A stretch of 64,000 bases of DNA from Escherichia coli. Lineage in GTDB: Bacteria > Pseudomonadota > Gammaproteobacteria > Enterobacterales > Enterobacteriaceae. Made by a program: the position numbers and the translations under genes. The notes beneath the pieces were generated by a model, which worked only from the letters and a program-made list of their open reading frames with translations, ran no database searches and was not told the DNA's origin. Of this stretch, positions 57,744 through 61,375 are shown piece by piece; within the stretch, counting starts at the first letter, position 1, and every line of letters starts with the position of its first letter. The DNA lies in NCBI RefSeq assembly GCF_046105845.1, contig NZ_CP151004.1; one strand, 5' to 3'.

Positions 57744-59444
57744 ATGATTATCGGTATTGACCTCGGGACGACTAACAGTCTGGCAGCGGTATGGCGAAAT
57801 GGACAAAGTGAACTGATCCCCAATGCGTTAGGCAAGTTTTTAACACCCAGCGTAGTTTGTGTTGACGAAAATGGTATGGTTTTGACAGGGGAGGCAGCTC
57901 GTGACCTGCAACTCATCAAACCACAAAATTGTGCAGCCAATTTTAAACGCATGATGGGCACATCAAAGACGTTTAAATTGGGCGGACGTGAATTTCGGGC
58001 AGAGGAACTCTCATCGCTGATACTGCGTCAGCTAAAAGAAGATGCTGAAAGCTATTTAGGTGAAGAGATAACAGAAGCAGTAATTAGCGTACCTGCTTAT
58101 TTTGGTGATGTGCAACGCAAAGCAACAAAATTGGCAGCTTCAATGGCAGGCTTAAACGTCGAGCGTTTAATTAACGAACCAACCGCCGCTGCACTGGCGT
58201 ATGGTTTGCATAATAAAGATGATGAACATCAATTTTTGGTATTCGATTTAGGTGGTGGTACGTTTGATATCTCCATACTGGAGTTGTTTGACAATATTAT
58301 GGAAGTACGAGCCAGTGCCGGGGATAACTTTTTAGGTGGTGAAGATATTGTCGATATCCTGATCGATGCATATTGCTCAAGGCGGGATCTTCCTGAAAAT
58401 ATTGAATGGCGTGAACCGACACTCCAGCGCAATTTACGCATCGAGGCTGAGCGTGTCAAACGCGTGCTTAGTATGCGCGACGAAGCTACTTTCAGTATGG
58501 AGATTGAAGGAAGGCGATATTACTGGCATCTGACCACAGAAAAATTTGAATTTTTATTACAGACCTTTTTCGAGCGAATACGTATGCCACTGGAACGGGC
58601 AATTCGCGATGCCAAAATTAATATTAGCCAATTAGACCAGGTTGTTCTTGTGGGTGGCACTACACGTATGCCACTGATTCGCAAACTTGTGACACGACTA
58701 TTTGGTCGTATACCGGCAATGCATTTAAACCCGGATGAAGTCATTGCCCAGGGCGCGGCTATTCAGGCAGCACTTAAAGCGCGGCACAGGGAATTACGAG
58801 ATATTGTAGTGACCGATGTTTGCCCTTATACGCTGGGCGTTGATACCTCTAAATCGCTGGGGCATACCCGCGAATCAGGCTATTTTGCACCCGTTATTGA
58901 GCGTAACCGAAGTATTCCTTGTAGTCGCGTTCGTGCCTTTTACACAGCACATGATCAACAAACAGAGGTTAATTTTAAAATCTACCAGGGTGAAAGCAGG
59001 ATGGTGGCTGATAATATTTTCCTTGCGGAGTTGTCAGTGAATGTTCCGCCAAAACCGGCCGGTGATGTGCGTATTGATGTTCGTTTTACGTACGACATTA
59101 ACGGTATTCTTGATGTCGATATCAGCGTGCCACTGACAGGGGCTAAAAATAGTCTGGTTATTGAACAGAATCCAGGGGCATTAACGAAAGAACAAATACA
59201 GCAGTCGTTGTCCAAATTAAGCCTGTTAAAAATTCACCCACGCGATGAACAGATAAACCAGGCCTTTATTGCCCGTCTTGATAATCTCTATCAACTCACC
59301 CTGGCGGAAACACGAGACTGGATAAGCAATTGCTCTCGTCAATTCAGTTATCTACTCGAGAAGCAGGATCCTGATCAACTAGCTGATTTTCGGGCTAAAG
59401 TTGAACCTACATTAGACTCTCTGGAATGGGAGCGTCTGCAATGA
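57744..59444 (+). CDS. Hsp70-family ATPase, HscC-like (specialised DnaK paralogue)
   Basis: Track ORF starts at TTG 57729; ATG at 57744 with AAGAGGA upstream is preferred; actin-fold motifs IGIDLGTTNS, DLGGGTFD and VGGTTRMP plus a C-terminal substrate-binding domain; resembles remembered HscC but is not identical. Confidence 0.8.
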   Translation: MIIGIDLGTTNSLAAVWRNGQSELIPNALGKFLTPSVVCVDENGMVLTGEAARDLQLIKPQNCAANFKRMMGTSKTFKLGGREFRAEELSSLILRQLKEDAESYLGEEITEAVISVPAYFGDVQRKATKLAASMAGLNVERLINEPTAAALAYGLHNKDDEHQFLVFDLGGGTFDISILELFDNIMEVRASAGDNFLGGEDIVDILIDAYCSRRDLPENIEWREPTLQRNLRIEAERVKRVLSMRDEATFSMEIEGRRYYWHLTTEKFEFLLQTFFERIRMPLERAIRDAKINISQLDQVVLVGGTTRMPLIRKLVTRLFGRIPAMHLNPDEVIAQGAAIQAALKARHRELRDIVVTDVCPYTLGVDTSKSLGHTRESGYFAPVIERNRSIPCSRVRAFYTAHDQQTEVNFKIYQGESRMVADNIFLAELSVNVPPKPAGDVRIDVRFTYDINGILDVDISVPLTGAKNSLVIEQNPGALTKEQIQQSLSKLSLLKIHPRDEQINQAFIARLDNLYQLTLAETRDWISNCSRQFSYLLEKQDPDQLADFRAKVEPTLDSLEWERLQ

Positions 59445-61375
59445 ACTGCTGGGAAATATTAGGTTTACAACCTGGCGCGGAAGAACGAGATATTAAGCGT
59501 CGTTATGCGCAACTGGTAAAAAATTGCCGCCCGGAAGATTCTCCCGAAGCCTGGCAACAATTGCACGATGCTTATGAACAGGCTTTACGTTATGACGACG
59601 AAGATCAGTGGCAAGAAGAGGAAGAAGAGCAACCGATCAATATATCCAGGGGTATTGTTCATCCTCGTCCTGTGATGACATTTCGCGCACTCAACACCTT
59701 TTCTGGTCATCCACTTCCTGATGTCACTATTAAATCAGAGGAGGAATTCACCTGGCAAGCCGTGCTGGATATGCTCTGTGAGGAGAATGAAGCAACCCCC
59801 GAACACGCCCCCATGCAACTTGCTAAGGCGTTATCTTTCCTTGAGAAAAAAGATCTCAGCTCACGAATGAGCTTTGAAGAAGCGTTATTACTGCATCTTC
59901 ATCGGGTATTCCGGCCATTATTAACTCTCGCTGCTGCACAAACGTTCAGATGGCATTTAGTTGCAGGCAGTCGTCAACCCGTAATCCAGACAGAAATTAA
60001 CGAAAGTTGTCTTCTTTATTATCGCATCGAAAAAGAAATTACCACTTTCTTTGCCAGTAACTTGTCTCCACTGGAAGAAATGGAAAACGGGAAGGAAATG
60101 GCTACGATTTATCAATCATTAAAGGATAATGAAGAGAGCCTGAAATGGTTTGATATCGCAGTATTAAATAAAATTGCTGAATTTGAACTGTCAGACAACT
60201 ATATGGCATTGTTAATAGAGCGTTTATCATATTCCTGGCGAAAAGAAAAAATGATTCGCAAGTGGAAATTAACAGAACGCTTCAATAATTTAGCAATGCA
60301 ACATCATAGTGGATATAAAAAGTTACTAAACGCCATAAAATTAAAAGGTCTTTTTTATTATCCATCTTTTGTATTCCAGTCCTGCTTACATGCTGCAGAG
60401 CAAGACTATTCACTTGCCTGGTATTCTCTTGGCAAAATGTATTACGAAGGTGATGAGGTTTCACAGGATCTAAAATTAGCCTTTAATTGGTTTAGCCGTG
60501 CCGCGCAGCATAATGTTATCGATGCTCAGTATGCGCTGGGCATCATGTATAGCGATGGAAGGGGCACGGATAAGAATATTAGCGAGGCACGAAAATGGTT
60601 ATTACTTGCTGCCCAAAATGGCAACGCATCTGCGCAATATGAGCTTGCCCGTATCTCACGCTTTGCTGTTGAGCCATTACGAAATTATGAAGAAGCATTA
60701 CAGTGGTATTTATCTGCCGCCACACAAGGACATGAACTTGCCCAGTATGAATTGGGACAAATGTATATACAAGGGATTGGCGTGGAGCGCGATGAGGTAC
60801 AGGCCCATCGTTGGTTTTTGCAATCGGCGGAACAGGACCATTCAGACGCACAATATCATACTGCCAGCTTGTATAGTGAAAGTGAGAGTATTCCACAAAA
60901 CCAGGAAAAAGCGCAGTACTGGTTTACCAGAGCTGCAAAAAATGGTTCCGGGGATGCCATGTATGAATTGGGTAAATATTATTTAACCAACAATGATGAT
61001 CCTGAAAATAATGCTGAGGCTATTCAATGGCTTACTGGTGCAGCGCAGCGTGGGAAAATAAAGGCGATATTTTTGTTAGCCGAAATGTATCTCTACGGTA
61101 CAAAAGATGTCGCAAAAGATGAAAATCATGCGCTGCACTGGTACGAAAAAGCGGCGCGTTTAGGGGCAACCGAAGCGCAACACCAGACTGCGGCAATGTA
61201 TGCTCAGGGGACAGGCACTAAAATTGATAATAAACAAGCATGGATGTGGCTAACAATTGCCGGAAATAACAACCCTTGGATTGAAAAAGATGCGTTGCGA
61301 TGCTTAATGTCGGAACAGGATATTCAGGATGCAGAACAAACGGCTGCAAATTGCAAACGTCTGCTAAGGATTTAA
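59441..61375 (+). CDS. J-like-domain protein with acidic linker and C-terminal Sel1-like repeat array; putative co-chaperone or adaptor of the upstream Hsp70
   Basis: ATG overlaps the upstream TGA stop (ATGA) with GGGAG 8 nt upstream; N-terminus resembles J-domain helices I-III but has RPE where HPD is expected; about seven Sel1-type repeats in the C-terminal third. Confidence 0.75.
   Translation: MNCWEILGLQPGAEERDIKRRYAQLVKNCRPEDSPEAWQQLHDAYEQALRYDDEDQWQEEEEEQPINISRGIVHPRPVMTFRALNTFSGHPLPDVTIKSEEEFTWQAVLDMLCEENEATPEHAPMQLAKALSFLEKKDLSSRMSFEEALLLHLHRVFRPLLTLAAAQTFRWHLVAGSRQPVIQTEINESCLLYYRIEKEITTFFASNLSPLEEMENGKEMATIYQSLKDNEESLKWFDIAVLNKIAEFELSDNYMALLIERLSYSWRKEKMIRKWKLTERFNNLAMQHHSGYKKLLNAIKLKGLFYYPSFVFQSCLHAAEQDYSLAWYSLGKMYYEGDEVSQDLKLAFNWFSRAAQHNVIDAQYALGIMYSDGRGTDKNISEARKWLLLAAQNGNASAQYELARISRFAVEPLRNYEEALQWYLSAATQGHELAQYELGQMYIQGIGVERDEVQAHRWFLQSAEQDHSDAQYHTASLYSESESIPQNQEKAQYWFTRAAKNGSGDAMYELGKYYLTNNDDPENNAEAIQWLTGAAQRGKIKAIFLLAEMYLYGTKDVAKDENHALHWYEKAARLGATEAQHQTAAMYAQGTGTKIDNKQAWMWLTIAGNNNPWIEKDALRCLMSEQDIQDAEQTAANCKRLLRI

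Follow-up and report, generated by a model that had tools for sequence, protein, structure and literature searches.

An arginine-type J domain encoded beside an HscC-type Hsp70 in Escherichia coli, with Arg-Pro-Glu at the position of the His-Pro-Asp triad

The His-Pro-Asp (HPD) triad is treated as the single indispensable feature of the J domain, and the gene considered here encodes a J domain in which Arg-Pro-Glu (RPE) stands in its place. The gene lies in a stretch of 64,000 nucleotides of Escherichia coli (contig NZ_CP151004.1 of RefSeq assembly GCF_046105845.1; hereafter the window), at 59441..61375 on the + strand, and specifies a J-domain/Sel1-repeat protein of 644 amino acids whose translation starts MNCWEILGLQPGAEERDIKRRYAQLVKNCRPEDSPEAWQQLHDAYEQALRYDDEDQWQEEEEEQP. 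Its N-terminus is confirmed to be a real J domain with RPE at the HPD position, and the gene immediately upstream is, by its sequence, that of an HscC-type Hsp70 with intact catalytic and allosteric residues. The product of the J gene probably serves the HscC-type Hsp70, translated just before it, as a dedicated class-C J-domain co-chaperone. An earlier note on this DNA, which placed the gene and quoted its N-terminal sequence correctly, had described a J-like domain of the helix I-II-loop-III pattern that has lost its HPD motif, and had proposed that it may bind the cognate Hsp70 without classical stimulation, act as a regulator, or be specific to its partner. In this report, we examine the homology, fold, genomic coupling and conservation of the domain, and weigh the readings that have been put forward for its unusual triad.

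The J domain comprises residues 1-50 (59441..59590, + strand), with helix I at residues 3-7, helix II at 15-28, a loop, and helix III at 35-52, as recognised by Pfam, phmmer, BLASTP, AlphaFold2 (AF2) and Foldseek. An alignment to the Pfam DnaJ profile (PF00226), which had been suggested as a check, matches residues 3-46 to model positions 2-51 of 63 with an i-Evalue of 2.1e-4; neither a genuine HPD elsewhere in the N-terminus of the protein nor a fold other than that of a J domain was seen. When the protein is compared with PDB sequences by phmmer, nearly all matches are J domains, and R-P-E aligns on the H-P-D of DNAJA2, DNAJA1, Tid1 and dnj-12. In a BLASTP comparison against a database of nine proteins, the alignment to K-12 DjlB (E 6e-9) is ungapped over the triad and sets RPE on the HPE of DjlB, and that to K-12 DjlC (E 2e-6) is ungapped over the J domain. 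A profile built from 74 family members matches 49 PDB sequences, all annotated as J-domain proteins or J-domain-bearing chains (best E-value 8e-10); these include 5NRO_B, the DnaJ of a DnaK complex, and the family consensus 'trPe' is aligned with 'yHPD'. The AF2 model of residues 1-53 has a predicted local distance difference test score (pLDDT) of 87.4 and places the triad in the loop between the helices at 15-28 and 35-52, and all of the top 50 Foldseek matches in PDB carry J or J-like domains (query TM-score, TMq, 0.54-0.88). Thus, the J-fold and the occupation of the HPD position by RPE, both read from the pattern of the sequence in the earlier note, are borne out by profile, alignment and model alike. 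The triad itself is Arg30-Pro31-Glu32 (59528..59536, + strand; codons CGC CCG GAA), and the loop that follows it is six residues shorter than in DnaJ. By profile and by fold this is therefore a J domain of PF00226, and by its triad it carries Arg-Pro-Glu instead of His-Pro-Asp.

The upstream gene (57744..59444, + strand) encodes 566 amino acids counted from the ATG at 57744, with an in-frame TTG at 57729. Its product is 44% identical to K-12 HscC, fails to reach the NCBIfam cut-off of either DnaK or HscA, and falls within the HscC-type clade of a neighbour-joining tree. HscC-type proteins are characterized by a length of 550-580 amino acids, a deletion in lobe I, loss of the GrpE-signature loop, an insertion in L1,2 and a deletion in helix B (PMC8215388), and all four structural hallmarks (the lobe-I deletion, the deletion at the GrpE-signature loop, the L1,2 insertion and the helix-B deletion) are present. 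The equivalents of DnaK D8, K70, R71, P143, D148, R151, K155, R167, N170, E171, D194, T199, D201, Q378, D393, N415, P419 and Q442 are conserved. In the numbering of the window protein, DnaK R167 corresponds to R141, Q378 to Q341, D393 to D358, P419 to P392, and L391 to Val356. Two DnaK elements that contact DnaJ, the D211 loop and D477, are missing. At the position of DnaK Arg167, with which the HPD aspartate pairs, 32 of 53 HscC-type Hsp70s have lysine and the window protein has arginine; in the unique sequences displayed, all those with lysine belong to the Pseudomonas/Atopomonas branch.

The two genes are closely coupled. The ATG of the J gene at 59441 overlaps the stop codon of the Hsp70 gene (TGA, 59442-59444) as ATGA, which implies co-expression, and a Shine-Dalgarno-like GGGAG lies 9 nt 5' of this ATG. 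An alternative in-frame ATG at 59426 (59426-59440), which would add MGASA, is disfavoured by the ATGA overlap, the Shine-Dalgarno spacing, the PGAP annotation and the orthologs. In E. coli 042, PGAP names the orthologs 'Hsp70 family protein', with a start equivalent to 57744, and 'J domain-containing protein'. The assignment of the J domain to the adjacent Hsp70 gene in the earlier note was right, as is indicated by the ATGA overlap and by the operon coupling that recurs in relatives. A scan of species-representative genomes with an alignment of RPD proteins gave 79 loci, mostly from Pseudomonas but also from Atopomonas, Massilia, a Burkholderiales metagenome-assembled genome and Klebsiella; this set consists of named genomes, sets aside about 160 further relatives, and is biased towards arginine by the narrow alignment. 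At 43 of the 79 loci, the end of an HscC-type Hsp70 gene and the start of the J gene lie no more than a few bases apart, and in four of these 43 two tandem Arg-type J genes follow the Hsp70 gene. The Pseudomonas loci L020, L029, L035 and L044 each have two RPD membrane J proteins after the Hsp70, and in Klebsiella spallanzanii (L082:6304-12506) the Hsp70 is followed by two RPE/Sel1 J genes of 669 and 822 aa. Some genomes in the set of Pseudomonas and relatives (L006-L084) hold one operonic and one orphan copy. The coupling extends beyond the arginine-bearing proteins: eight of eight diverse members (four HPE, and one each of HQE, NPE, HPD and KPD) stand directly 3' of an Hsp70 gene, and the order Hsp70-then-J is found in 57 compiled pairs. 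At one of these further loci (L094:4278-5996), the Hsp70 gene before an HPE-type J/Sel1-like gene is split into open reading frames of 213 and 358 aa, which may reflect a pseudogene or an error in sequencing.

When residues 1-320 served as query in an exhaustive HMMER search, 1,994 cluster representatives were returned at E<=1e-3, and almost all of them match via the N-terminal 55 residues. Among the best 136 of these, counted with the E. coli fragments set aside, the triads are RPD in 67, HPE in 32, RPE in 18, HQE in seven, NPE in five, KPD in two and HPD in one, with RAE, HSE, SPE and HME once each; in this family, therefore, the triad is almost never HPD. The whole N-terminal region is common to only five representatives (P0009-P0013), all with RPE, two of them in the topB-gdhA slot of other enterobacterial genomes. 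Among the variants encoded directly 3' of an Hsp70 are one with HQE, in which the proline is lost (L090:2041-4080), one with NPE and Sel1-like repeats (L091:6001-8124), and one with KPD and an RDD domain (L095:1774-3036). The sampled RPD J proteins of Pseudomonas and Massilia have about two to five predicted transmembrane helices in the C-terminal third. The RPE J domain of the window thus appears, judging from these comparisons, to be a member of a large and apparently undescribed clade of Hsp70 partner proteins rather than a one-off decay.

The Hsp70 phylogeny is in line with this picture. In the neighbour-joining tree, one clade unites the Hsp70s that accompany Arg-type J domains in Pseudomonas, Massilia and Enterobacteriaceae; the partner of an NPE protein is sister to this clade, and the partners of His-type proteins, including K-12 HscC, are basal. 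Such a topology would fit a single old change from histidine to arginine, kept across gamma- and beta-proteobacteria. Across 84 loci, which were chosen by pattern, all four CGN codons are used for the arginine of the triad. Within the enterobacterial orthologs, identity to the window protein is 68-76% in the J domain, 34-51% in the middle region, 34-41% in the Sel1 region and 0-36% in the acidic linker, and RPE is unchanged in all six orthologs and paralogs with the full N-terminal region, as it is in the two E. coli alleles seen. The contrast is sharpest against the genome of locus L003, where SelD, TopB and GdhA are 94-99% identical to those of the window and the Hsp70 is 86% identical, while the J/Sel1 protein (L003:8001-10292) is 41% identical and its J domain 76%. 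The J protein is fast-evolving as a whole and its J domain and triad are not, the opposite of what is seen in a decayed domain; this contrast of rates suggests diversifying selection or allele replacement in the part that serves recognition.

In the structure of DnaJ with DnaK, His33 is hydrogen-bonded to the main-chain carbonyl group of L391 in the linker, Pro34 contacts P419, and Asp35 bonds R167 and Q378 (PMC8215388). Since the proline and the acidic residue of the triad are kept, their counterparts in the Hsp70 are kept, and the histidine contact is with a backbone atom that an arginine could also reach, we infer that the J domain of the window would be a functioning activator of its cognate Hsp70, and that RP[DE] would be a functional, clade-wide equivalent of HPD and not a broken motif. 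In the proposed mechanism, the short J domain of helices I-III would dock at the interface of the nucleotide-binding domain, linker and substrate-binding domain of the ATP-state Hsp70. Glu32 would take the role of DnaJ Asp35 towards Arg141 and Gln341, Pro31 would pack against Pro392, and Arg30 would replace His33 as the hydrogen-bond donor to the linker backbone at Val356. The ensuing ATP hydrolysis would trap a client recruited by the eight Sel1 repeats and the middle region. E. coli 042 possesses both the Hsp70/J pair and the hscC-djlC-djlB locus, and the difference between histidine and arginine may insulate the two paralogous systems, so that the RPE pair would be kept apart from an HscC-DjlB/DjlC (HPE) system coexisting in the same cell. 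A more far-reaching proposal, which we hold tentatively and rate somewhat short of even, is that RP[DE], alongside the NPE and KPD of sister groups, is a selected and fully functional alternative to HPD, and that the first residue of the triad is a specificity code by which paralogous pairs within one cell are kept orthogonal; in E. coli 042, HPE would go with HscC and RPE with the Hsp70 of the topB-gdhA slot.

Several considerations weigh against reading the domain as a dedicated activator. Stimulation of ATPase activity by RP[DE] J domains is an argument by analogy, and stimulation is lost in all systems tested when the histidine of HPD is exchanged for glutamine (PMC8215388). The canonical helix IV is either absent or not recognised, as the Pfam match ends at model position 51 of 63. 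A fused AlphaFold model of J(1-58), linker and Hsp70, built with an alignment of 19 pairs, has its domains docked (pLDDT 82, predicted TM-score, pTM, 0.80) without a readable interface between J domain and Hsp70; it resembles AMPylated BiP and intermediate-state structures of DnaK (target TM-score, TMt, 0.86) far more closely than the ADP state 2KHO (TMt 0.52). The predominance of arginine among the triads is inflated, since the best 136 were ranked with an RPE query and the loci used for codons and adjacency were retrieved by a peptide pattern of which RPD is a part; a sample made up solely of short fragments, collected by means of a mixed profile, has HPE in 58, RPD in 21, RPE in 10, NPE in at least 17 and HPD in none. 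In addition, no Hsp70 gene was found within 8 kb in 36 of the 79 RPD loci. Co-adaptation of Hsp70 and triad was also considered and set aside: 18 Hsp70 columns separate the partners of Arg-type from those of His-type domains, and DnaK positions 207, 214 and 216 among them lie near the J-binding sheet, but these columns trace to essentially one phylogenetic split.

The most serious competitor, which we nevertheless regard as unlikely, is that of a pseudo-J or 'type IV' domain that docks on the Hsp70 as a tether or regulator and does not trigger ATP hydrolysis. Histidine is required in every canonical system tested, J proteins without HPD, such as Pam16 and DNAJB13, are considered not to stimulate (PMC13254874, PMC8215388), and in E. 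coli 042 stimulation could be supplied by DjlB and DjlC, which are of the HPE type. However, the window Hsp70 is only 44% identical to HscC, and hence cross-activation by DjlB/DjlC is not assured. A type IV domain combines a non-conservative loss of the triad with a true J partner; here no HPD or HPE J gene is present in the operon, nor is a His-type J gene in the orthologous and Pseudomonas loci, and where J genes occur in tandem both are of the Arg type. The domain also retains the proline and the acidic residue that contact P419 and R167/Q378 in DnaK, and it belongs to a clade that is large, old, and in which each member is accompanied by an intact ATPase. Among the three options offered in the earlier note, specificity for its partner fits best, and the framing as a 'J-like' domain that lost its motif and binds without stimulating is not favoured, because DjlB and DjlC already have glutamate as the third residue, arginine is clade-wide in operons with intact HscC-type Hsp70s, and conservation within the protein is highest in the J domain.

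Less probable again is that the pair is an accessory conflict or stress module, for instance one that senses foreign or damaged proteins, in which the fast-evolving Sel1 and middle regions would recognise a changing target that the Hsp70/J engine would remodel, the J triad being incidental. The low GC content of the two-gene module (0.37-0.46 at 57744-61375, against 0.51-0.57 in the flanking core genes selD, topB and gdhA at 54000-57300 and 61400-62600), the restriction of the pair to 351 of 5,426 complete E. coli genomes (97% DNA identity), the divergence of the J/Sel1 protein between neighbours and an Hsp70 that diverge far less, and the tandem J/Sel1 duplicates of K. spallanzanii speak for such a module. 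Yet the pair is flanked by housekeeping genes, different genera share the slot, and the PADLOC models have no meaningful match, with only a marginal, partial N-terminal fragment of PtuA at 25.7 bits and PDC-M61B at 16.2 bits. Moreover, this proposal concerns the client and not the mechanism of the J domain, and is compatible with a dedicated co-chaperone. A likeness to CoCoNuT systems was considered and rejected, as those that contain Hsp70 are unrelated McrBC fusions. Finally, the domain might be a decaying remnant that lost its function by a change of histidine to arginine in a dispensable accessory gene, since the arginine codon CGC is one nucleotide from CAC (His) and the gene is missing from most E. 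coli genomes. We regard this as very improbable: the arginine is common to orthologs at about 40% overall identity and to hundreds of proteins of Pseudomonas and others, with all four CGN codons, the reading frame is intact over 644 codons, and conservation of the J domain, the best-conserved segment, throughout the family contradicts decay.

The remainder of the J protein is of a different character. The J domain is followed by an acidic low-complexity linker at residues 51-65 (YDDEDQWQEEEEEQP; 59591..59635, + strand); the acidic stretch reported in the earlier note is real (residues 52-65), and is the poorly conserved segment noted above. The middle region, residues 66-320 (59636..60400, + strand), is without a recognised domain, gives no significant match in a Pfam search, and is alignable only to the enterobacterial orthologs P0009-P0013. 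Eight Sel1 repeats (PF08238) occupy residues 328-610 (60422..61270, + strand), six with E below 0.001 and two weaker in Pfam, and this region has 34% identity with YbeQ, which is encoded at the K-12 hscC locus. Transmembrane prediction on the J/Sel1 protein gave no segment, and phmmer searches with the C-terminal parts of DjlB and DjlC found no match in it.

The window belongs to the enterobacterial ydjA-selD-topB ... gdhA region, and the Hsp70 and J genes are two extra + strand genes between topB and gdhA, a slot that orthologs also occupy in other enterobacterial genera. The low-GC intergenic region 5' of the pair (57300..57743, + strand; GC 0.40) is presumed to hold the promoter, and a simple sigma-70 scan gave no convincing candidate there. 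The orthologous locus L003 has between topB and the Hsp70 gene an additional gene of 266 aa without Pfam match (5434-6234), which is not in the window. The hscC-djlC region is present in 4,410 of the 5,426 complete E. coli genomes.

J domains and their HPE variant are known, and what is new is the arginine-type triad in the branch of J proteins that partner HscC-type Hsp70s. The HPE of DjlB/DjlC has been called the only tolerated replacement, and the question has been raised whether other deviations are accidental or selected (2026 review, PMC13254874); in the largest J-protein census, sequences without a full HPD were set aside, HPE being the only one of them described (PMC10410713). A full-text literature search found no paper joining RPD with J-domain, Hsp70 and HPD, although an earlier mention in Barriot et al. 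2020 or Kluck et al. 2002 is possible. If the Arg-type domain stimulates its Hsp70, the mechanistic role assigned to His33 needs revision and the 'invariant' histidine may be dispensable in such systems; the pair would also provide a natural orthogonal Hsp70/J pair for engineering, as well as a handle on the biology of HscC-type chaperones. If it does not stimulate, it would be the first case in bacteria of a widespread pseudo-J system that has a dedicated Hsp70.

In comparison with known systems, the domain shares with the canonical J domain (PF00226; DnaJ-DnaK, 5NRO) the order helix I-II-loop-III, the Tyr/Ala positions of helix II, and the proline and acidic residue of the loop, and the window Hsp70 shares with DnaK the equivalents of R167, Q378, D393 and P419; it differs from the canonical domain in having RPE for HPD, a shorter loop after the triad and no detected helix IV. 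Pam16/Tim16 and DNAJB13 resemble it in having a J fold without canonical HPD. Pam16, however, has DKE or DKS as its triad and partners the true J domain of Pam18 (PMC13254874), whereas the window protein keeps the proline and an acidic residue and belongs to a large clade that stays with its own Hsp70. Closer are the J proteins of E. coli K-12, DjlB (YbeS) and DjlC (YbeV), which have been reported to work with HscC (PMC8215388, PMC13254874). K-12 DjlB starts MKNCWKILDIE, and both proteins share with the window protein a short N-terminal J domain with the signature CW-IL ... [HR]PE-DP-..-AYE-AL, aligned without gaps and with the triads in register, as well as glutamate as the third triad residue, an acidic stretch after helix III, and a gene encoded with that of an HscC-type Hsp70. 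As the triad of DjlB/DjlC is HPE, the change of aspartate to glutamate is a family trait, and only that of histidine to arginine is special here. Other differences concern the C-terminus, which is a soluble Sel1-repeat region in the window protein and a DjlB_C region with a C-terminal membrane anchor in DjlB/DjlC, and the gene order, the window J gene being directly 3' of its Hsp70 gene through ATGA and djlC convergent with hscC; the partner, in turn, is a paralog of HscC at 44% identity. Separate Sel1 proteins, YbeQ and YbeT, are likewise encoded at the K-12 hscC locus. The RPD J proteins of Pseudomonas and beta-proteobacteria, annotated only as 'J domain-containing protein', are of the same J subtype, likewise have arginine first, and are encoded 3' of an HscC-type Hsp70 of the same clade; they differ in having RPD and polytopic membrane C-termini where the window protein has RPE and Sel1 repeats. 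Within the HscC-partner branch of J proteins, the product of the window gene is a soluble, Sel1-fused member.

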